Source: a virus (Duplodnaviria; Caudoviricetes). Taken from it: a stretch of DNA of 64,000 nucleotides. Location: the IMG/VR virus record IMGVR_UViG_3300042922_001473. One strand, written 5' to 3'. The notes under the pieces are model-generated. The model was given only the letters and a program-made list of their open reading frames with translations, did no database searches and had not been told where the DNA came from. How positions within the stretch are numbered: position 1 is the first letter of the stretch; each line of letters begins with the position of its first letter. Made by a program: the position numbers and the translations under genes. Below, piece after piece: positions 6,870-47,508 of the stretch.

Positions 6870-7595
6870 ATGGCAATATTTTACCATATATCAACAGAAT
6901 TAAATCATAATGGTCAGTTCGAACCAAGAATACCAGAACATAGACATAAGGATGCTGAGAATATAGAAATTAAAAGAGTATGTGTAGCTCCTTCCTTAGA
7001 GGATTGTTTAACTGCAATTCCCAATGGAGGTATGAGACTTGAATCATATGATATTGATAGAAGAGGATACTTTTTAGTTATTACGATTGATACTGATAAA
7101 TTAGGTATATCTTCACAGAGTATTATTACATCAGAAGAACTTTACGAAAAAGATTATGTTCGTGACGCTAACATAACAAATGAGCATTGGATTACTTGCT
7201 CTTTTACTGTCAGCCAGGAAGATATGTTTATCATCAAGCTAAATGGTTGGCAGGAACAAGTTTATGACGTATTACCACATTGTATTTATGCTATTGCAGA
7301 TGAAAAATATGAAGGAGATTATTTTGAGGCATATGAAGAAGAATATGATAAAGGAGTTCCTTGTTGTACTGCGATAGAAGATTTAGATTATACATGCGAA
7401 AATGTAAATGCAGGTGAAGAAGTAAACTTAAGATATTATGATGATTTTGAACAGGAAGATATTCTTGATTTACTTAAAAATTATCCAGTTGAAACTATGG
7501 AAGTTTCTATTGATGGAGTTTTATTTAAGGTAAAATCAAGTTGCAATTTAAAAGATTTATTCTTGTCACATTACAATATGTTAGGTTTTGTATAA
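6870..7595 (+). CDS. putative ADP-ribosyltransferase-fold protein (FYH..F.PRIP..RVC..E.W family)
   Basis: FYHIS, FEPRIP, KRVCVAPS, NEHWI; paralog of 11375-12103; the ART fold is inferred. Confidence 0.55.
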   Translation: MAIFYHISTELNHNGQFEPRIPEHRHKDAENIEIKRVCVAPSLEDCLTAIPNGGMRLESYDIDRRGYFLVITIDTDKLGISSQSIITSEELYEKDYVRDANITNEHWITCSFTVSQEDMFIIKLNGWQEQVYDVLPHCIYAIADEKYEGDYFEAYEEEYDKGVPCCTAIEDLDYTCENVNAGEEVNLRYYDDFEQEDILDLLKNYPVETMEVSIDGVLFKVKSSCNLKDLFLSHYNMLGFV

Positions 7596-9052: not shown

Positions 9053-9277
9053 TTAGGTTTTAATTTTTAAATACAAACCTTGAGTTTCCCACTCCTAATG
9101 TATGCTTTCACATGCAGTAGGAAAAACCTCTGGTATAGGATTAAATTTTTTCGCCAATTCTATTGAGTATATAATAACTTATTCTGGGATTTGTTCTGCA
9201 CCATATCCATTCCAGTTGTGCTTCAAATCTTTAAAACCTTCAATCTTCTTAATTGATTCTTCTCTTTTTTATTCATA
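9053..9277 (-). pseudogene. hypothetical protein pseudogene (NWNGYGA..VFPT..EWE family)
   Basis: GGGGGAG RBS and ATG; coherent frame broken by in-frame TAA and TAG. Confidence 0.65.
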
Positions 9278-33085: not shown

Positions 33086-33313
33086 ATGGCAAATTCTAAC
33101 ACTGGAAACAATAACATAGTAGTACCTGAAGCTAAACAGGCACTTAATCAAATGAAAGCTGAAATAGCTAATGAACTTGGGTTATCTAATTACGAGCAAG
33201 TAGATAAAGGAAACTTAACAGCAAGACAAAATGGTTATGTTGGTGGATACATGACTAAAAGATTAGTTGAAATGGCTCAAAGACAAATGAGTGGGCAAAG
33301 TGGAATGAGATAA
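33086..33313 (+). CDS. alpha/beta-type small acid-soluble spore protein
   Basis: VVPEAKQAL.QMK.EIANELG....DKG.LTARQNG.VGG.MTKRLV..AQ. Confidence 0.95.
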   Translation: MANSNTGNNNIVVPEAKQALNQMKAEIANELGLSNYEQVDKGNLTARQNGYVGGYMTKRLVEMAQRQMSGQSGMR

Positions 33314-34257: not shown

Positions 34258-34497
34258 AGCCAGTTAAATTTAAATAGCATTTAATTAAATATTAACTGCT
34301 ATTTTTTTATCACTTTCGAAGGATTAACGTGATTTATATTAAATGAATAATCTATAATATATAAGATTTTGAAAAAGGTTATTAATTTAATAATACTTTA
34401 ACAGGATGAAAAAATGAAAAAAATAATTTATTTATTAAAGGAAACACTTTATAACACTAAGAACCTATAATTACTTTATATTAAAAGGAGAATCAAT

Positions 34498-38055: not shown

Positions 38056-40116
38056 TTATAAAATTTTTTGCACTCTTTCAATAGCTTCTATATCACAATC
38101 CATTAATGTCCCCGTAAGATATAAAAAATCCACCCATTCATCGCTTTTAATTGGAGTTAATATATCATCCTTACAATTTATATCTCTATTTCTATCAGAT
38201 GTTTTTATCAGCTTATTAAACCCGTACATAGTTAAATAATCTTTACATCTTTTATCTAATTCATATTCCTTTAAATGTAAATCACTATTACCTGTCATTA
38301 TTCTTCCATGATGCTGTAATAACATATTAAACTGTATTAAATCAACATAAGGTTTTAATACTTGTGCTGAAATTACCGAATGCTTTCTATTCTCAAACAT
38401 TCTGGGATTACCCTTTCTATAAGGAAAATGAGCTAATAAGAATGTTTTTGCGTTTGCCCAAAACTTACCCTGCCATAATACGTCTAATTTTCCAAGGTCA
38501 TGTAAACCTGCAATATTTGAAATCTCTAAAGCATTATTTACTGTATAATCAGAAAAGTTGTCAGCAATTAGTTTCTCATACATTATTTGCTTCACATTAA
38601 ATGAATGAAGTATCCATGCCTCTTCCTTATAATCTTTAAACACCCTTTTACTTTTAACGATATTACTTATAGGAAACTCAATGCATTTACTTCCTGGTTC
38701 TAATCTAAAACCCGTATTGTCATAATAACAATCATACCCTTTTATTATGATGGTACTCCCTATGTCCACTTTATCACATTGTACTTCTTCAATGTTGTTT
38801 AGTTTGTAACGATATAGAGTATTTGTTTTACTTAATTTTTCTAAGTCTGTTAAACTAACTGATACAGTTTGTCTATTGAAGCTACTGACAGCAGGGTTAT
38901 AATCAACAACGATGTTTACATTTTTAATATCCCTGATAAGTTCTTTTTTATTTCCATTTCTTAACTTGTTTTTATGTTTATTTATTTCTCTGTCCGTAAC
39001 ATATTTTTCATAATAAGGATTTAATATTTCATTAATCCATTTCTTTTGGATATCCCATGAGAAATTTATCCCTTGATTAAAAACTATTTTCTTTATTGTT
39101 TCCATTACAACATCTTTATCATAAACACCTTGATAAGCACCTAAATAGCAAATAATCTCTCCTTCTCCACCCCACCTTACAACTCTACCGTCTCTTTGAA
39201 TAAGAGAATCTATAGAGCTTATAGACGAGTACATTCTTGAAGTAGAAATATCCATTCCTGCCTCTATTACCTGAGTTGAAATTAAGATTTTATTGTTTTC
39301 TTTAGAACCTTTGCCAAAGTATTTAATGGTTTTTTTCTCTGCTTTAAACCTATCATCTAAAAGAAGCTTACTATTTAATACGATGCACCTTGATTTATCT
39401 TTAATTTGAAGATAAACTTCAAACAATTCTTTTATGGTATTGCATATAATGATTTGCTTTTTATCGTAATCATTAATCTTCTTAAAATCAAGTTCTTTTT
39501 CATATGTTATTTTGACTTTTCTATTAGCAACTGAAGGTCTATCTGTTATAATAACTTCCATATCATATCTATTTTTTAAAAAATTAATAAGATATTCTGG
39601 CATTGTAGCTGTCATTATAATAAATCTATTTTTCCTGTTTTTTAATGCATCAAGCATTAGTAATGTAGTATTTAATGTTATAGCAGGGTCAAAAAGCTGA
39701 ATTTCATCAAATATCATATTTGATTTAACAACATTTTTTCCCTTTCTAAATGATTGCACACCTAATCCTAAATATCCAGAAAGTACCTGGTCAATTGTTG
39801 TAACAGTATAATCGTTTTGAAGAGTGGTATCTTCTTGTATTGAAGAATGATTTAGTTTATAAGGCTTTTTATTTAATATCTCATTATAACCATCAAGTCT
39901 ATCACAAATAGTCGTAGCAAGTGTTTTTTGAGGAAGAACATATATATGCCTTCCTCCCCATTTATTTGCAATATAATAACTTCCTTCGGTCTTCCCTGAG
40001 CCAGTTGAACTTAACACAAGTAAGTTCTTATCTAAGGGAACTTTTGATAATTTTTCCTGCACTTCTGTCAATTCAACTTTATTTGTCTTAAACAATGTCT
40101 TTAAAAAATCCTGCAT
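38056..40116 (-). CDS. cas3: Cas3 helicase-nuclease with C-terminal HD domain
   Basis: STGSGKT, TTIDQ, FDEIQ, MTAT, STQVIEAGMDIS, QRDGR; C-terminal LHS..V, LHDLGK, KHS, HHG, MDCD. Confidence 0.92.
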   Translation of the reverse strand: MQDFLKTLFKTNKVELTEVQEKLSKVPLDKNLLVLSSTGSGKTEGSYYIANKWGGRHIYVLPQKTLATTICDRLDGYNEILNKKPYKLNHSSIQEDTTLQNDYTVTTIDQVLSGYLGLGVQSFRKGKNVVKSNMIFDEIQLFDPAITLNTTLLMLDALKNRKNRFIIMTATMPEYLINFLKNRYDMEVIITDRPSVANRKVKITYEKELDFKKINDYDKKQIIICNTIKELFEVYLQIKDKSRCIVLNSKLLLDDRFKAEKKTIKYFGKGSKENNKILISTQVIEAGMDISTSRMYSSISSIDSLIQRDGRVVRWGGEGEIICYLGAYQGVYDKDVVMETIKKIVFNQGINFSWDIQKKWINEILNPYYEKYVTDREINKHKNKLRNGNKKELIRDIKNVNIVVDYNPAVSSFNRQTVSVSLTDLEKLSKTNTLYRYKLNNIEEVQCDKVDIGSTIIIKGYDCYYDNTGFRLEPGSKCIEFPISNIVKSKRVFKDYKEEAWILHSFNVKQIMYEKLIADNFSDYTVNNALEISNIAGLHDLGKLDVLWQGKFWANAKTFLLAHFPYRKGNPRMFENRKHSVISAQVLKPYVDLIQFNMLLQHHGRIMTGNSDLHLKEYELDKRCKDYLTMYGFNKLIKTSDRNRDINCKDDILTPIKSDEWVDFLYLTGTLMDCDIEAIERVQKIL

Positions 40117-40502
40117 TATTTCTGTCCTCTTAACTTTTCTAATAATGTCATATCGTAATCCTTTGTAACAAATTCTACTGTTAATTTATGATTACATGCA
40201 TTACCCAAATATGTATAAATTAACTCCATATCTTTAGAAGTAAATTCAGTATTTAAAAAATTATTAATACCATTCAGCATAAATTCATGAAGCCTATCAT
40301 TTCTCCACTTTTGAGAAAAAGGTTCTGATTTGTATGCAGGTCTTGATAACCACTCAATTACTTTACATTCTAAATCTAAAGGTGTTTTACAATCAGATAT
40401 AACAAGATACTCATTGCTACGTTTATGTGCTATAAACTCACCCTTATTATTCATAAAGCTATCTGGAAATGCTTCTATTAAAGCCTTTATACTATTCTCC
40501 AT
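40116..40502 (-). CDS. phage-type hypothetical protein, translationally coupled to cas3
   Basis: AFP.SF.N...EFI, K..EWLSR, IY..LGN..N..L motif; TAATG overlap with cas3. Confidence 0.7.
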   Translation of the reverse strand: MENSIKALIEAFPDSFMNNKGEFIAHKRSNEYLVISDCKTPLDLECKVIEWLSRPAYKSEPFSQKWRNDRLHEFMLNGINNFLNTEFTSKDMELIYTYLGNACNHKLTVEFVTKDYDMTLLEKLRGQK

Positions 40503-40735: not shown

Positions 40736-41164
40736 TTAAAACAATAGTTTGATATGTAACTTATTATCGAGTATTTCTACTGTTAAATTATTTTTATTAG
40801 TGCCGATTGTACCTACATATTTAGTATCAGTGCTTAGAACATTTAATATAATTTGCTTAAATAGTTCTTTATTTTCAGCTCTTTTATTATAGTTTTGCAA
40901 AAAACTTATACAATCTGCTATATTGTCTAAATTTGCATTTTTATTTGCAATAATTTCTCCATAAGTAAATTTTGAAATATTACAATGTTCAATTATTTCT
41001 ATTTCATCATTTAAATTAATATATATATTTATATTATTACTTGTTTTTTCTTCTTTTAAGGTTATATTATCATTTTTATGATTTAATATAAAATCTATAG
41101 TTATCTTTTGACAATTAAGCATAAAATAAAAACCATGATTAACAATAGAATCCAAATTTTTCAT
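40736..41164 (-). CDS. hypothetical protein between cas5 and cas3
   Basis: 142 aa, GGGG RBS 12 nt after the cas5 stop. Confidence 0.6.
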   Translation of the reverse strand: MKNLDSIVNHGFYFMLNCQKITIDFILNHKNDNITLKEEKTSNNINIYINLNDEIEIIEHCNISKFTYGEIIANKNANLDNIADCISFLQNYNKRAENKELFKQIILNVLSTDTKYVGTIGTNKNNLTVEILDNKLHIKLLF

Positions 41165-41176
41165 TATATCTACCCC

Positions 41177-41815
41177 TTAAATTTTAATATTTTTGACACA
41201 ACAAATTCTTTTTTCTTGTTTTCTATTTCTTTTTTCACTAAACAAATAAATATCTTCAAATTTTATTTTTGAACTTACCCAGTCATACATTTCGTATAAA
41301 TAACAGTCACCGTCTACTTCTTCTACCCAAGGCATAAGTACGTTTTCTAATTTATCTACCTTTTCAATACTTTCAAGATAAACCATGCTATCTGAGTTTC
41401 CAATCACTTCAATATTGTTTAAATACATTTCAAGATTTGAAATTGAATTATCTATATAGAAGACAATTTTATCTACGTCTACAAACTCCCTTACACCTAC
41501 AGAAGTTATATTCTCTCCGACTTCTAACTCTTCATCTTCCTTTTGTTTTCCATAGTAGGAATTTGAAGCTAATTTAAGCTTTACAGTGTTTTTAACAAAT
41601 TCCCCAGGATATTGCACATAGATTATTGCATTTTTGATTTTATGAAATAATTCCTTTGCTTTTTCTACTCCATCCAATTGAATAACAGAAGATAATATTG
41701 CTCCTCTTAGAGTATAAGTCATTGGATATTCATAACTTCTTGAATTTAAGTGACTATCATTATAATTTTTAAGCGAAAATAGCGATGCTGTTTTGAAAGT
41801 AACTTTACTAATCAT
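41177..41815 (-). CDS. cas5: CRISPR-associated Cas5
   Basis: N-terminal F...SLFSLK......S..YP..YTLRGAI; VREFV; G.SDS loop; context. Confidence 0.8.
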   Translation of the reverse strand: MISKVTFKTASLFSLKNYNDSHLNSRSYEYPMTYTLRGAILSSVIQLDGVEKAKELFHKIKNAIIYVQYPGEFVKNTVKLKLASNSYYGKQKEDEELEVGENITSVGVREFVDVDKIVFYIDNSISNLEMYLNNIEVIGNSDSMVYLESIEKVDKLENVLMPWVEEVDGDCYLYEMYDWVSSKIKFEDIYLFSEKRNRKQEKRICCVKNIKI

Positions 41816-41845: not shown

Positions 41846-41920
41846 ACTTAAATAATATATTATTAAATGTTAAGTTGTAAGAAACACATATTTTCAATAG
41901 TTTGTAACTAAATATTAAAA
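41846..41920 (-). ncRNA. mini-array / crRNA-like regulatory RNA candidate (two divergent repeats, 15-nt spacer)
   Basis: Repeats at 41891-41920 and 41846-41875 (~20/30 identity for the latter); ATTGAAAA handle; own promoter upstream; seed match to 47349-47359. Confidence 0.6.
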
Positions 41921-41944
41921 GTTTTTTCTTGTATTTATAGTCAA

Positions 41945-41974
41945 TTATATCATATTTTATTGTTTATAGTCAAC
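41945..41974 (-). promoter_or_regulatory. sigma-A promoter for the mini-array and cas5
   Basis: TTGACT-N18-TATAAT with extended TG. Confidence 0.7.
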
Positions 41975-42191
41975 AAGTTAGTCAAAAAATATAATGCCTT
42001 AATGACATTTTTACAGAATAACACTTTGTAAAATATTAAATGTGCTGATTTGTTAGAATCCTATGTTTTGTAATAACAATGTGATAAATATTAATATCAA
42101 ATAATTTTTCTACATTTTTAACTTCAAGTAATAATTTTTAATAACAATATGTTAGATATTAAACTAATTCATAATATTTGATAACAATAAA

Positions 42192-42728
42192 TTATTTTAT
42201 ACTTTCAATTAAAAGTGGCTGAGAAGTAAATGATAATCTTTGACTTGAATATTGATATAACCCATTCCATTCTCCATAAACACCATCTAAATCAAACCAG
42301 AATATTCCTTCTACCCTTTCTCCCCAAGTTCCATCAAGGTCGGCTGATTCAGCTACAAACAATTCTCCACGATAACCTTCGACACTTCCATATGTTAGCT
42401 CTTCCATGGGTGTTAGGTAACTGTTCATACTACTCACTTTTCCTAAAACTTGTATTTCCCTAATAAGTTGTCCATTCTCGGAAATTAGATATAAATATCC
42501 AACACCATCTGGTTGATTTATAAACTCAATTCTACGCTTAATATTCTCTCTTTCTAAACTACGTGTTATCTGAGGTAAATCATCTTCCTTAATTAATTTA
42601 TTAACTGCCTGTTCATTTGCTTTTGAAGCTTGTTCTGTTGTTTTAACCTCCCTTTCAGGTATTTCAATACAACCTACTAATCCTAATAACATAATTGACG
42701 CTAATACTATTGATACTATTTTTTTCAT
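42192..42728 (-). CDS. phage-type lipoprotein embedded in the CRISPR array
   Basis: Lipobox LVGC; SLERENI.RR, GKVSS.NSYLTP, DGTWG...GIFW...G...EW; AAGGAG RBS. Confidence 0.85.
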   Translation of the reverse strand: MKKIVSIVLASIMLLGLVGCIEIPEREVKTTEQASKANEQAVNKLIKEDDLPQITRSLERENIKRRIEFINQPDGVGYLYLISENGQLIREIQVLGKVSSMNSYLTPMEELTYGSVEGYRGELFVAESADLDGTWGERVEGIFWFDLDGVYGEWNGLYQYSSQRLSFTSQPLLIESIK

Positions 42729-43053
42729 TATCGTTCTCCTTTTTTTATTGTTTTATTTTAACAAACTATGAGGAAATACCAGATAGTTCGATTATTTTTA
42801 ATAACAGTGTGTTGAATATTAAGTCTAAACCCGAAACGTCTAAATTTAGCATTTTGAAATATCAGTGTGCTTTATATTTAATAGTTATATGGCAGTATTT
42901 AAATAACAATTATATAGAATGTTTAGCGAATATATTGCAGTTGGTTACTCTAACTCTACAAAATTTCAATAACAGTATGTTAGATATTAAATTCAAATAG
43001 ACGACTCTGAAAATCTGTAATAGATAATTTTTTAATAACACAATGTTGAAATT

Positions 43054-43284
43054 TTATTTTATATTAAATCTTTTACATCTTGTCATAATAAACGCTATAT
43101 TTTCTTTACAGCAGATTTCATACATTTGTTGTGCGATATGACAATTCGTTTCTTTGTTATAGGTCATTTTTTTGCAATATAGACACATACATTCTTCTCT
43201 TCTAATACTATCTGTCGTTTTGTTAGTCCATATTAATTCATTGTAGTGTTCTTCTAATACTGGATTTGTTTTTATTTCACTCAC
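43054..43284 (-). CDS. small Cys-rich protein embedded in the CRISPR array
   Basis: 76 aa; RREECMCLYC..NCHIA...YEIC.......TRC; stop codon lies inside a repeat. Confidence 0.7.
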   Translation of the reverse strand: MSEIKTNPVLEEHYNELIWTNKTTDSIRREECMCLYCKKMTYNKETNCHIAQQMYEICCKENIAFIMTRCKRFNIK

Positions 43285-43763
43285 GCCCCTTACAATTCTT
43301 ATCCTTTTGGATTATCTGATATTTCCAGAAGGCTCACTTTAAAAACATTGTGTTAGATGATAAGCCAATAGTGGCGGTAATTTTCTTACTTTTGCGTAAA
43401 CATTGTTTTAATTACATTATGTTCGTAATATTAAGCAATAAAGAAAAAACATTTTATCAAGTATCTTTTTTTTTATAATACTATGTTAGATATTAAACGG
43501 AAGGAGCGACTATTATGAAGTATCTGTAAGCGTCATTTCAATAACAGTATGTTAGATATTAAACTCAATTGAAAGTGTTGAGGAATTAACTGCCCCCATA
43601 TTTAAATAACAGTATGTTAGATATTAAATTAAAGCATCGACAAGTCCCGAAGCAATAGGAACTGAATTTTAATAACAGTATGTTGGATATTAAACAAGTT
43701 GCTATTTGCATGTAATAAGCTTCCTAATAATTAATTACAATAACACTATGTTAAATATTAAAC

Positions 43764-43929
43764 CCGTCAAAAATATCAGTAATTCCAATACACACAGAAG
43801 CATAATCTTATATATTTTTCTGTCTACCATAATGCTGTTTTTATTTTTCAAATTCTAAGTACCAAATCTACTTAGTATTTGAAAAATAACCCAGTTATAT
43901 TATAAAAAACCGATAGACAGAAATCTTAA
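43764..43929 (-). promoter_or_regulatory. array leader with long hairpin
   Basis: AT-rich region between the cas7 stop and the first repeat; TATAAT at 43899-43904 (- strand); nested inverted repeats. Confidence 0.6.
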
Positions 43930-44937
43930 TTATTTAGAACTGTTTTTAATGTAATTTATGTTTCTTTCAACAATGAAATCAAGAAATTTATCATTAGTAT
44001 ACTGGTCAATCAATGTATCAAAGGCAACAATATCTTTGAACTCTCTGCATACAGATGATAATTTCGAATTAACTTCAATAAAATCATCATTTAAAGCACT
44101 ATACTTTGTAAGTTTTTGGTTTCTGTCAGTTTTTTCAGTTATAATTCCTGATACTTTCCCTAAATGAGGCATATTTGTATTGCACATTGCTCCTTCTATA
44201 TCCATAATCGTATTTCTAAGAGCATTTAAAGCTTTTTTAATTCTTTCTTTTATTTGTTCTTTATCAAGTGTATAAATCATTCTTTCATCATCGAAACCTA
44301 TCCTTCCAAGGTCAAGAGATACTGTTAATGCATATTCAGAAGAACGAATAGGTCTATAGTAAATCATTTGAGCATTTTGGTCTTTATTTGTATTTGCCTC
44401 AGAAGTTGTATCAAATGAACCATCTTCATTTTTAATCTGCTCTTGTTTTGTCTTGCCATTCTTTTCTGATAGGTCTACTCTATTGTACAAAACACTATCA
44501 TTTCTTGTTCCCTCTTTAGCAATAGCCCATGAGAATTGTGCAGTAGTAAATCTTTTTTCATTATTTCCTTTTCCTGCGTTCATAAATCCACATATATCAT
44601 CTATTACACATTCTTTAACCTTATTTCCACTTGCACTAAATCTATCATCTTTTTCTTTAACCTTCCCATTTTTCATTGGTGAGAAGATTTTACAAGTATC
44701 GCAGAGTTCTATTAAATCTGATAAAAGTCTTAAATTCTTACTATAAACATGCTTTAAAAGGTTTCCTGTAATAGCATTTCTAAGTTCACCGTCTTTCAAC
44801 TGTATTGTTCTTGTCTTAACAACATTGCCAATTGATTCCTCATTATTTAAAGCCTCTGCATTTAATTCCATATTAAACATAAAACTCAATTTAAACATAT
44901 TATCATCTATTTCTATGCCATATTTATTATCTATCAT
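43930..44937 (-). CDS. cas7: Cas7 (DevR/Csa2-like)
   Basis: LN...LNNE..IGN...R, NAITG..LKH, LCxxC..C..DD..GF, R....QFSW, Y...V.LDL.RIG. Confidence 0.88.
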   Translation of the reverse strand: MIDNKYGIEIDDNMFKLSFMFNMELNAEALNNEESIGNVVKTRTIQLKDGELRNAITGNLLKHVYSKNLRLLSDLIELCDTCKIFSPMKNGKVKEKDDRFSASGNKVKECVIDDICGFMNAGKGNNEKRFTTAQFSWAIAKEGTRNDSVLYNRVDLSEKNGKTKQEQIKNEDGSFDTTSEANTNKDQNAQMIYYRPIRSSEYALTVSLDLGRIGFDDERMIYTLDKEQIKERIKKALNALRNTIMDIEGAMCNTNMPHLGKVSGIITEKTDRNQKLTKYSALNDDFIEVNSKLSSVCREFKDIVAFDTLIDQYTNDKFLDFIVERNINYIKNSSK

Positions 44938-46268
44938 TATTCAATATCCTCCGATTCTTCCATATCATTAGTTTCAATTTCTTCAATTTCTGTTTCTATA
45001 TCTGTTCCTTTTTTCTTATAATAAACGCTTGAATAAGTTAATATTGCATCCCCTATTGTTCTTACTGCCTCATTATTATCTGCAAAGTTTATAATTTCCT
45101 CTATTTCTTCTTCATTAATACAAGGTCTTTTCATATATTTCCAATGCAATAAACTTATTTGTCGCATAACTTTTGATAAATCTGTAATGGTATTACAGTT
45201 TAATAGTAAAACCTGTATGTCATATCCTATCTTATCTCTTAATAGTGATTTAAGACCATTTGCCACTCTTCTTATACTTTGATTTTTATAAATTTCTTGT
45301 ACTTTATGATTTTGCAATCTCACCAACTCCTCTATCATTTTTTCTTCTAATAATTCTTTTTTCTTAGCATATATCTGTATTAATTTTGAAAAATTATTAT
45401 ATTTTGTATTTAGTAAAAACTCAGAAGTAATTATCTTAACGTCTTCGCTTACTTTAGAATATTCTATTTTCATTAACAATATCTCGCATAAATCAATGCT
45501 TATATCAAGCATAGGCACTTCGAAGTTTAAATCTGCCATTGGCTTCTTGCTTGTGGGAGATAACTGCATATAAAGAGCCTTTTCATAATTGCCTATCATT
45601 AATTCTGATTTAAATTTTATTAAGGTTTTAAGATAAATTTTTGCATTTACAATGGATTTTGAATTTTTTCCAAAGAAAGTAAAGTGCTTTATTTCGCCTG
45701 TTTCCTTATTTGAATATGTCCAGTTATAAGGTCTTTGTATTCTATCTATTTTCTTAGGAAACAGTATTATATTTACTTCATAATCTGTCTTGCAGTATGT
45801 AGTAGCCACTATAAAGCCAAGAAATGATAATTGGTTTTCAAAATCATTAACATTTTTTGCTTTAGGAGACAACCCTCCTCTAATACCTTTAGTGTAAAAA
45901 CAAGTTCCACAGTATGTCGCACCTTCTGATTTACTACCTTTCAAGAATTTATCATCAAGTGTTTCATAATAATTAAATATCATTTCCATGTTTTCTTGTT
46001 TGTCCAAAAATTCATTAAGGTTATTTAATCTAACTTCCTTTTCACTTCTATTTAAGCTTGAATTAATACTCCACATATCATCTACTGATAAGGTGCTTAA
46101 TATCAAATCCTTATAAGCAAAATCTTCTTTTGTCTCTATTACGAAATAAGCTTTTTTATTCGTTAAAACCCAATCTATGCCATTGTCGTCAAGAATTTTG
46201 CATAACCCGTAAGCAATACAAAGTTCCATTATTTCATTTTCTTTTTTTATAACTTTAAATTGCTTCAA
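44937..46268 (-). CDS. Cas8-like large subunit
   Basis: Position between cas6 and cas7; AYGL..IL, KGIR; helical Cas11-like C-terminus; coupled to cas7. Confidence 0.7.
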   Translation of the reverse strand: MKQFKVIKKENEIMELCIAYGLCKILDDNGIDWVLTNKKAYFVIETKEDFAYKDLILSTLSVDDMWSINSSLNRSEKEVRLNNLNEFLDKQENMEMIFNYYETLDDKFLKGSKSEGATYCGTCFYTKGIRGGLSPKAKNVNDFENQLSFLGFIVATTYCKTDYEVNIILFPKKIDRIQRPYNWTYSNKETGEIKHFTFFGKNSKSIVNAKIYLKTLIKFKSELMIGNYEKALYMQLSPTSKKPMADLNFEVPMLDISIDLCEILLMKIEYSKVSEDVKIITSEFLLNTKYNNFSKLIQIYAKKKELLEEKMIEELVRLQNHKVQEIYKNQSIRRVANGLKSLLRDKIGYDIQVLLLNCNTITDLSKVMRQISLLHWKYMKRPCINEEEIEEIINFADNNEAVRTIGDAILTYSSVYYKKKGTDIETEIEEIETNDMEESEDIE

Positions 46269-46280
46269 TTTATCACCCCT

Positions 46281-46958
46281 TTATGCTACTTCCCATAAGA
46301 AGCCATGTCCTGTAGATGTATTTTCCCCTGCTCCACAATTGTATATAGCGTTTATAACGTCATAATCACCCGAAACTTCAAGCATACATTTCCAGCTAAA
46401 TATATGTCCTTTTTTATATTGTTCTACATTTCTTTTTGGATTAATAATATTAAAATTTATATCTCCTTTAATTCCGAGTTTTTCAGCTTTTCTAATTGCA
46501 TTATTCTTTAATCTTAATGCTACCTGCTCCATATCAGAAAGAAGTCTTTCTTCACCTTTACCTGGAATATTAACTATAACTTTAGTTTTAAATAAATATT
46601 TATCCTTTTTAACAAGTTCATTAACAGGTTCTATACTTGCTACAACAATTACCATATCTTCAATTCTTATTAGTTGATTTTTTACTACGCTTTCTATAAA
46701 TTCATTAACAAAGCTATCTTCTCCCGTTAGATAAAAGTGAATATTATCATCTTTTATGAACACATTTGTAAATGTAAATAATCTCATTTCTTTGTTTTTC
46801 AGGTGTAGCATTTCTGCAGATTTAGAATTTATGTTATTTAACAACATGGAATATATCCCATGTGTATAATTCATTTTATTTTGATTTACCTTTTCAATTA
46901 TTTGTCCTGAAATTTTAATTCTCATACACAGTATCCGCTTATACTTCCTTTCCTTCAT
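46281..46958 (-). CDS. cas6: CRISPR endoribonuclease Cas6
   Basis: LFTF, C-terminal GAGENTSTGHG glycine loop; true start probably MRIKIS. Confidence 0.88.
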   Translation of the reverse strand: MKERKYKRILCMRIKISGQIIEKVNQNKMNYTHGIYSMLLNNINSKSAEMLHLKNKEMRLFTFTNVFIKDDNIHFYLTGEDSFVNEFIESVVKNQLIRIEDMVIVVASIEPVNELVKKDKYLFKTKVIVNIPGKGEERLLSDMEQVALRLKNNAIRKAEKLGIKGDINFNIINPKRNVEQYKKGHIFSWKCMLEVSGDYDVINAIYNCGAGENTSTGHGFLWEVA

Positions 46959-47319
46959 ACTTAGCTTTTAATCTTTCATAATCTTTTCGTTCATTTTCTT
47001 CCATTTCTCTTTTATAGTTTTCTATGTGCTTTTTCTCTTGATTTATTCTTTTTTCTTTAAAGTTTTCAATATCTTTATTTGTAACTACTTTCTTTTCTAA
47101 TAAAATATCTATCATAAATTTATTAGAAAATAAGTATTTTTCAGTTATTAATTTATTTGTTACTATAGTTTGCTTATTATCATCTTCACTAATTTCTTGG
47201 GATACACATAAAATACCACCATCAGTTGTTGCTATCATTATATAATCAGCATAAAGTGCCATATTTGTATATGCTATTGTTTTACCTACTAAGTCGTTTG
47301 GGTTATTTATTAAGTACAA
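46939..47319 (-). CDS. phage-type hypothetical protein, first gene of the cas operon
   Basis: TTG at 47319 follows AGGAGG (the track start at 47397 lies in the promoter); DLVGKTI, ER..YERLKAKY. Confidence 0.7.
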   Translation of the reverse strand: MYLINNPNDLVGKTIAYTNMALYADYIMIATTDGGILCVSQEISEDDNKQTIVTNKLITEKYLFSNKFMIDILLEKKVVTNKDIENFKEKRINQEKKHIENYKREMEENERKDYERLKAKYEGKEV

Positions 47320-47365
47320 GTTTTGTTTCCTCCTATATTTTTCTACCATATGTATTTCTATAAAC

Positions 47366-47394
47366 ATTATATCAACTTTGTTGTCTATTGTCAA
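47366..47394 (-). promoter_or_regulatory. consensus sigma-A promoter of the cas6 operon
   Basis: TTGACA-N17-TATAAT with extended TG. Confidence 0.85.
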
Positions 47395-47508
47395 CAATTA
47401 AATTTTATTGACTATTTTTTATATTGGTTTAAACAGAAAAAATTTATTTTTATCTTATTAAAGAATATAATTTAGTATTAAAGAGCAATTGAAAGCGAGG
47501 AGTTTTAA

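Follow-up and report, generated by a model that had tools for sequence, protein, structure and literature searches.

The stretch of DNA analyzed here (the window, 64,000 nucleotides; IMG/VR record IMGVR_UViG_3300042922_001473, Duplodnaviria, Caudoviricetes) carries a CRISPR locus in which the genes are ordered cas6, cas8a, cas7, array, cas5a, two phage-type genes and cas3, the HD domain of the latter being C-terminal (Table 1). The array lies between cas7 and cas5 (43763-42012, minus strand), and two open reading frames (ORFs) are embedded in it in the array's own direction: one codes for a Cys-rich protein of 76 aa, the other for a lipoprotein of 178 aa. Both the place of the array and the two ORFs had been given in an original prediction from the sequence and were confirmed. 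A short spacer ahead of the lipoprotein gene, spacer 10, may act as a CreA-like repressor guide for that gene.

Sixteen repeat-like sites were found in the array, 11 of which belong to one family. Eight repeats lie within 7 mismatches of the consensus; shuffled sequences gave 0.0 matches even at 8 mismatches, and regularly spaced repeats with unique spacers beside cas genes identify a type I array. The repeat is 29 nt long (reference 43535-43563, minus strand), the leading base of the 30-mer belonging to the spacer. Nearly every repeat differs from the others, as had been noticed, repeats 4 and 9 being the only identical ones. The distal spacers do not shrink steadily, as had been supposed: spacers of 14, 28, 11 and 25 nt are interspersed with others of 36-38 nt. 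Searches of phages, plasmids and viral contigs with the spacers of this array gave AT-rich chance matches only. With a repeat profile built from relatives only, fewer than 0.05% of the window positions reached 8 bits. Outside the array this profile detected a single site above 15 bits, a solitary repeat-like 29-mer (34268-34296, minus strand, 22 bits); no CCA-seed target was found for the sequence behind it.

Every array examined keeps a 4-bp stem with a loop of 3-4 nt, and behind it a handle of 8 nt. Mismatches in the window amount to 5/104 in the stem and 13/39 in the loop (p=2.6e-5); in the related locus L006 (loci of relatives are numbered with L) the values are 0/320 and 44/120, and between arrays of the family the stem pairs covary through compensatory changes. 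By this pattern, the variation of the repeats is not random decay. The structure corresponds in silico to a Cas6-type hairpin, although its weak stem does not appear in the minimum-energy fold. Around the embedded genes, none of the four bracketing repeats has a stem mismatch (0/32). Since Cas6 cuts 8 nt before the repeat end and the bracketing stems are intact, it probably cuts around both genes, which would then be released as separate RNAs.

The ORFs had been said to start after a spacer-sized segment; they start 51 nt (76-aa ORF) and 66 nt (lipoprotein) past the upstream repeat, compared with spacers of 35-38 nt. Of the 66 nt before the lipoprotein, 32 are a spacer; the remainder is made up by a 5' half repeat (42762-42749) and the ribosome-binding site (RBS). 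Both genes are flanked by repeats, as predicted, but the downstream junctions are partial: repeat 8 holds the stop codon of the 76-aa ORF, and a 3' half repeat follows the lipoprotein gene. The two half repeats, the 3' one being weak, suggest that the lipoprotein gene was inserted into a repeat. The inserts, of 277 and 588 nt, are gene-exact, with one small ORF in each; no integrase, transposase or element ends were found in either.

The lipoprotein has 118 close homologs, is present in phages of many hosts and falls into mostly viral clusters. The ratio of nonsynonymous to synonymous substitution rates (dN/dS) is 0.13-0.16, indicating purifying selection. In 81 of 82 loci the gene adjoins a partner gene of about 155 aa with a hydrophobic N-terminus, which is absent in the window, and none of the 82 lipoprotein loci examined elsewhere has a CRISPR-like array. 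Together the two proteins form a widespread two-gene phage module (L003, L005, L038-L117) with no Pfam family. The structural model (predicted local distance difference test, pLDDT, 80; predicted template modelling score, pTM, 0.52) had as its best VIA match 3bdu (Z 6.0, root-mean-square deviation 1.9 over 51 residues), followed by Sm/Hfq folds; according to the model the core of the protein may be Sm-like.

The 76-aa protein also belongs to a real phage-type family with viral clusters (dN/dS about 0.13); its predicted structure was too poor to use (pLDDT 43). The ORF was called by neither annotation. Its strong RBS lies 1 nt from a GTG codon and 10 nt from an ATA codon at the start position of relatives, and because this spacing is unfavourable the ORF may be translated poorly. 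The description of both genes as intact thus holds for the lipoprotein (frame, RBS and lipobox) and for the 76-aa reading frame, but not for the start of the latter.

Spacer 10 lies between repeats 10 and 11, two degenerate repeats identical to each other at 17/31 positions. It matches an 11-nt site in the preceding spacer 9, 45 nt upstream, and this partial self-target is seed-perfect and flanked by the trinucleotide CCA. In foreign DNA, matches to three spacers of relatives are preceded by CCA (29/29 match, Bacillus phage FADO), CCA (31/35 match) and TCA, so the protospacer-adjacent motif (PAM) is of the CCA type. Among 19 possible guides, two only, spacer 10 and the guide of a mini-array before cas5, have a CCA-flanked site with a perfect seed in the window; both targets are located in the cas locus, where shuffled guides would be expected to yield 0.011 (0.088 in the window). 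All four mismatches of spacer 10 are outside the seed (p=0.001).

The mini-array has its own promoter (11/12, also feeding cas5) and two degenerate repeats. Its guide shows a seed match with a mismatch at position 6 and the correct PAM, and the target is placed at the promoter of the cas6 operon. These are the features of a CreR mini-array, and this CreR-like match (10.1101/2023.03.10.532045) indicates that Cascade may be used as a repressor in this locus.

A duplication that took in the end of spacer 9 and its repeat is the probable origin of spacer 10. Since its mismatches avoid the seed, the PAM fits and the flanking repeats are far more diverged than the spacer, selection appears to have acted on it, and we consider it likely that spacer 10 is a selected self-guide. 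That it represses the lipoprotein gene, the next intact gene downstream of the target, is about an even call, and so is the following account as a whole. The locus would be a working, type I-A-like array on a giant mobile element, which two phage-type genes entered by recombination into or beside repeats, becoming trimmed to RBS and ORF. Cutting of the hairpin repeats by Cas6 would divide the array transcripts into gene-length pieces. A local duplication of the spacer 9 end would have left a 14-nt spacer between two degenerate repeats, and the RNA of spacer 10 would guide Cascade to the CCA-flanked 11-nt site 45 nt upstream. In CreA and CreR, pairing this short is insufficient for cutting by Cas3. 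Cascade would thereby block a weak internal promoter with its -10 box in repeat 10 and keep the orphan lipoprotein gene low; if Cascade were lost or inhibited, the gene would be released, as in the addiction modules CreTA/CrePA or in anti-anti-CRISPR modules. The 76-aa unit would have the same layout, with a decayed look. What precedes the lipoprotein gene, a short spacer among degenerate repeats, looks more like a DNA-level Cascade repressor guide, a possibility missed in the original prediction, than like decay or an mRNA-processing device.

Several observations weigh against this account. The candidate internal promoter has a perfect -10 hexamer (42914-42909) with a -35 match of 2/6 beneath the target, and promoter-like sites occur at chance density (60 vs 58). 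This guide would pair with the template strand, a position from which read-through is as a rule poorly blocked. The stem of repeat 10 is broken, and the 5' end of the guide consequently needs a transcription start or an atypical cleavage; a start near the handle in repeat 10 could itself make that end. Duplication alone would account for a match between spacers 10 and 9. Fourteen related loci, among them that of the element carrying two embedded ORFs, gave no comparable self-match, so that the guide has been seen once so far, and no close relative of the window array was found. Finally, toxin, exclusion or anti-defence genes had been suggested as the cargo: neither the lipoprotein nor the 76-aa protein has a PADLOC match to a defence or toxin profile, the lipoprotein model has no Foldseek match, and both belong to phage families of unknown function. 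It is doubtful that the lipoprotein gene codes for a toxin.

Upstream of the 76-aa ORF the order of elements is alike: a perfect repeat, a spacer with a promoter-like site (10/12, 43541-43512), degenerate repeats and a spacer resembling its predecessor. Here spacer 5 resembles part of spacer 4 (10/12 nt), and two such neighbour matches occurred in 0.025% of shuffles. As a live guide spacer 5 was rejected, the PAM being CTT and the seed containing mismatches. Because of this misfit and the doubtful start of the ORF the unit looks decayed, which suggests, as a weak lead, a decayed copy.

Close relatives of the window Cas7 are encoded by plasmids of Bacillus thuringiensis (502 kb) and Clostridium perfringens (404 kb) and by metagenome contigs of 517-528 kb; none was found among the viral contigs searched. 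The array lies between cas7 and cas5 in 10 of 17 Cas7 loci, with at least two changes on the tree. Arrays also occur between cas5 and cas3, cas5 itself may be flanked by repeats (L017, L030), and in several relatives the RBS of cas5 or cas3 is within 10-30 nt of the last repeat. On the elements of about 500 kb the repeats are highly variable (29/40 distinct in L006, 16/16 in L018), and L018 has many spacers of 22-26 nt; the arrays of L009 and L010 are nearly uniform. Array position, repeat variation and short spacers are family traits and hence not special to the window, where the first two had been thought surprising.

Embedded ORFs also recur. In L006, a 517-kb element, ORFs of 58 and 79 aa lie in separate arrays; in front of each, a strong RBS closely follows a repeat, and the 58-aa ORF, like the 76-aa ORF of the window, has its stop codon inside the next repeat. 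The strong RBS of the 79-aa ORF and its identity in a sibling element (L124, 97-98% identical) argue that it is coding. Both ORFs are unchanged in L124, while the leader-end spacers differ; such arrays would be alive, since their leader spacers turn over. The layout is not peculiar to this genome. The idea of a gene-capture site gains from the retention of these repeat-flanked ORFs as leader ends turn over, but capture of the genes as true spacers is not supported, their borders being half or eroded repeats and not duplicated ones. As to the synteny of the cargo, the layout recurs and the content differs: the genes of L006 are unlike those of the window, and no homologs of its two ORFs were found.

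Some further features of the related loci may be listed. At L006:7057-7398 the 79-aa frame runs on for 33 codons beyond its TAG, also present in L124, and ends at a stop codon that lies in the next repeat's loop. In L006:1-17600 the whole system is present twice in tandem; five arrays are interleaved with the cas genes, each having its own stem variant, and the third has a hairpin like an IS200/IS605 end near 7470. In the array at L018:9058-10400, on a 522,790-bp contig, all 16 scored repeats are different and several spacers are diverged duplicates; this may be a mainly regulatory array. Oversized gaps in L012, L013 and L020 were rejected as cargo because they consist of a duplicated cas5 end and a leader; at L012:4053-4400 and L013:10777-11210, duplication of the cas5 3' end with the leader gave tandem arrays with two leaders. 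L037 has a single repeat (9126-9154) without spacer in a leader-like stretch immediately before cas5. The B. thuringiensis and C. perfringens megaplasmid systems (L022, L023) have no array within 8 kb, and cas8 and cas3 of C. perfringens are annotated in pieces.

The embedded genes could instead be passengers of the array transcript, with the repeats serving mainly as sites of mRNA processing or control by Cas6 and spacer 10 having no control role. This would fit the intact stems of all four bracketing repeats, and no terminator was found between the cas6 promoter and cas5. In relatives, the RBS of cas5, cas3 and small ORFs follows a repeat at a distance of 10-30 nt that holds no promoter, so translation from array RNA would be normal in this subtype. 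However, such closeness is automatic when an array lands in a short intergenic gap, the conserved stem is equally required for making the neighbouring CRISPR RNAs, and the seed-perfect, PAM-flanked self-match between the two most degenerate repeats would be left unexplained. We regard this possibility as rather unlikely. Excision by Cas6, proposed originally, is plausible, but is probably not the main control. The companion claim that the genes have neither promoter nor terminator stands for the terminator; promoter-like sites, including the perfect -10 hexamer, do exist, at the chance density given above. In a more far-reaching reading of the locus, which is also rather unlikely and does give spacer 10 a role, the arrays of this subtype would be gene-cassette arrays, in which phage genes land between repeats and are released by Cas6 as mRNAs of their own, and slip-duplication of the neighbouring spacer yields the self-guide that brings the new gene under Cascade control. 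The window would then be a snapshot of the birth of a CRISPR-repressed toxin or exclusion module, with the lipoprotein unit live and the 76-aa unit decayed.

We judge it unlikely that the genes are neutral cargo, phage genes that drifted into an accessory-gene hot spot in an array's older part, and that spacer 10 is a chance duplication of the spacer 9 end. Three more non-cas phage-type genes lie in the operon without repeats, spacer duplications are common (spacers 5 and 4 here, several in L018), the start of the 76-aa ORF looks damaged, and the oversized gaps of L012 and L013 are merely duplicated cas5 ends with leader. On the other hand, the placement of the mismatches, the PAM and the much greater divergence of the flanking repeats point to selection, the lipoprotein gene is intact and trimmed to its stop codon, and the ORFs of L006 and L124 persist despite spacer turnover. 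Spacer 10 might also be a real self-guide that limits read-through into the distal array, the mini-array and cas5, with the lipoprotein incidental. The internal promoter has no clear -35, and the locus already limits its own cas operon by a guide; yet cas5 and the mini-array have a strong promoter of their own, and the lipoprotein gene is the only intact gene between the target and that promoter, which makes this explanation improbable. Capture of whole genes by Cas1-Cas2 as giant spacers is most improbable. The genes do occupy spacer slots, and related arrays still gain spacers at the leader end, but acquisition duplicates a full repeat, whereas the flanks here are eroded or split, the inserts are gene-exact, and cas1 was not found in the window nor beside the related systems. 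An artefact joining phage reads through the repeats, which can break assemblies, hardly deserves consideration: the 20.5-kb locus is identical base for base in separate assemblies from JGI and NCBI, the protein is present on five contigs (the source samples possibly being shared), the junction repeats are unique variants, and L006 and L124 show the same layout.

If repression of the lipoprotein gene by spacer 10 is correct, regulatory guides could hide in ordinary arrays as apparently decayed short spacers directed at a spacer next to them, which annotation would miss, and local duplication would provide an origin for CreA-type guides with no need for Cas1. The range of Cascade-guided repression would come to include a bacterial I-A-like system carried by giant mobile elements, and a possible toxin or exclusion factor would be seen in a two-gene phage membrane module that is widespread but unstudied.

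Table 1. Features of the cas locus in the window, in the direction of transcription (minus strand).
Feature	Position	Strand	Basis or remark
Sigma70-type promoter of the cas6-cas8-cas7 operon, perfect	47366-47394	-	12/12 consensus match
Site of 11 nt targeted by the mini-array guide, with its PAM CCA; close downstream of the operon -10 box	47346-47359	+	guide/target matching
cas6	46281-46958	-	TIGR01877 above cut-off, PF01881
cas8 (Cas8a-type)	44937-46268	-	PADLOC PDLC01586, E 1e-88
cas7 (DevR/Csa2 type)	43930-44937	-	PF01905, TIGR01875
Putative leader, AT-rich, with inverted repeat and -10 hexamer at 43904	43763-43929	-	sequence
Repeats 1-4, near consensus, spacers 35-38 nt; ordinary immune part	43535-43762	-	repeat scoring
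Degenerate repeats 5-7, ahead of the 76-aa ORF	43336-43497	-	repeat alignment
76-aa Cys-rich phage-family ORF, frame intact, start doubtful	43054-43284	-	homologs 75-78%, dN/dS, viral clusters
Repeat 8, 5'-eroded, contains stop codon of 76-aa ORF, hairpin stem intact	43029-43057	-	repeat alignment
PAM CCA and 11-nt self-target in spacer 9; covers the -35 position of the internal promoter candidate	42931-42944	-	guide/target matching
Degenerate repeat 10 (pseudo-R1), with perfect -10 hexamer 42914-42909	42897-42927	-	repeat scoring, promoter scan
Spacer 10, 14 nt, candidate CreA-like repressor guide	42883-42896	-	positions 1-5 and 7-11 match the target, 6 and 12-14 do not
Degenerate repeat 11 (pseudo-R2)	42853-42882	-	repeat scoring
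Repeat 12, with intact stem; predicted 5' end of the lipoprotein mRNA by a likely cut of Cas6	42795-42823	-	repeat alignment
5' half repeat immediately before lipoprotein RBS	42749-42762	-	11 bits, relatives-only profile
178-aa phage-family lipoprotein, good RBS, invariant lipobox Cys20, without usual partner gene	42192-42728	-	homologs, RBS, loci
3' half repeat just past lipoprotein stop codon	42176-42186	-	weak, 4.4 bits
Repeats 14-16, trailer end of array	42012-42163	-	repeat scoring
Two-repeat mini-array with CreR-like guide	41846-41973	-	promoter 41973-41944, repeats 41920-41891 and 41874-41846, guide 41890-41875
cas5 (Cas5a-type)	41177-41815	-	PADLOC PDLC01390, E 1e-15
cas3, helicase first, HD domain at C-terminus, single 686-aa protein	38056-40116	-	profile matches

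The proteins of the window are recorded on a contig of 534,699 bp. Small genes of phage type occur in runs in the window, which also codes for large surface proteins and has insertion-sequence genes, and a metagenome-assembled genome of Clostridiaceae has an annotated paralog of the lipoprotein; the source is presumably a giant plasmid-like or phage-like element (about 535 kb) of a clostridium. Three further non-cas genes interrupt the cas operon without flanking repeats (46939-47397, 40736-41164 and 40116-40502), two of which match the phage families PHROG 11750 and 7711. Between 49824 and 64000 very large secreted proteins are encoded in tandem, with a common repeated helical C-terminal module; among them are a protein of 2934 aa with LRR_5 repeats and one of 1076 aa with RCC1-like repeats recognized by eye. 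A small acid-soluble spore protein and a CheY-like response regulator are also encoded on this mobile element (33086-33313 and 788-1159).

The Cas8a, Cas5a and Csa2/DevR-type Cas7 profiles and a YCA PAM are shared with subtype I-A, the Csa2 model itself scoring below its cut-off for the window Cas7. Unlike subtype I-A, in which helicase and HD domain are split, the system has a single fused Cas3 with a C-terminal HD domain, its arrays are interleaved with cas genes, and it is found mostly on 400-530-kb elements of Bacillota. No cas1, cas2, cas4 or other adaptation module, and no Csa5, was seen in the window or in the 20-kb loci of relatives.

The two half repeats suggest that a repeat was split by foreign DNA, in the manner of prophage PhiAP1.1 (10.1101/2020.10.09.333658) and of Tn7-like transposons (PMC11837452). 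Unlike these, the inserts are single genes without integrase, transposase or ends, and the array is apparently still processed. With integron cassette arrays only the promoterless order of RBS, ORF, stop codon and site is alike. In a literature search of incomplete coverage, nothing relevant was found on genes embedded in arrays or on giant spacers.

The mini-array at 41846-41973 fits CreR and other regulatory mini-arrays fully (10.1101/2023.03.10.532045; 10.1101/2023.03.03.530964). The survey in the latter reported none in bacterial subtype I-A, and its mini-arrays are stand-alone intergenic units, whereas spacer 10 lies inside the main array. As cited in that survey, the scaRNA-Cas9 of Francisella represses the lipoprotein gene FTN_1103; a CRISPR-like RNA with a short match and a lipoprotein target, here predicted, are common to both. 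The Francisella case, as far as described there, is of type II, concerns a host virulence regulon and has its target gene outside the array.

The closest known systems are CreTA of Haloarcula (I-B, PMC9458426) and CrePA of Acinetobacter baylyi (I-F, with the phage-derived protein toxin CreP, 10.1101/2024.01.05.574328). Degenerate repeats around a regulatory guide are the CreA pattern (PMC9458426), and the window shares with both systems a short guide between two such repeats, a partial PAM-proximal match beside a candidate promoter position and a phage-derived cargo gene within the cas locus. By its layout, to which any claim of membership is limited, the unit would work like a CreA module. 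It differs in its I-A-like system and in its cargo, a lipoprotein with putative promoter and toxicity only. The control logic is thus known, but inside a full array it has not, as far as we found, been described before: the unusual part is a predicted repressor guide whose target is a neighbouring spacer, the two being built from adjacent units well inside a full array in which a phage gene is carried as well.
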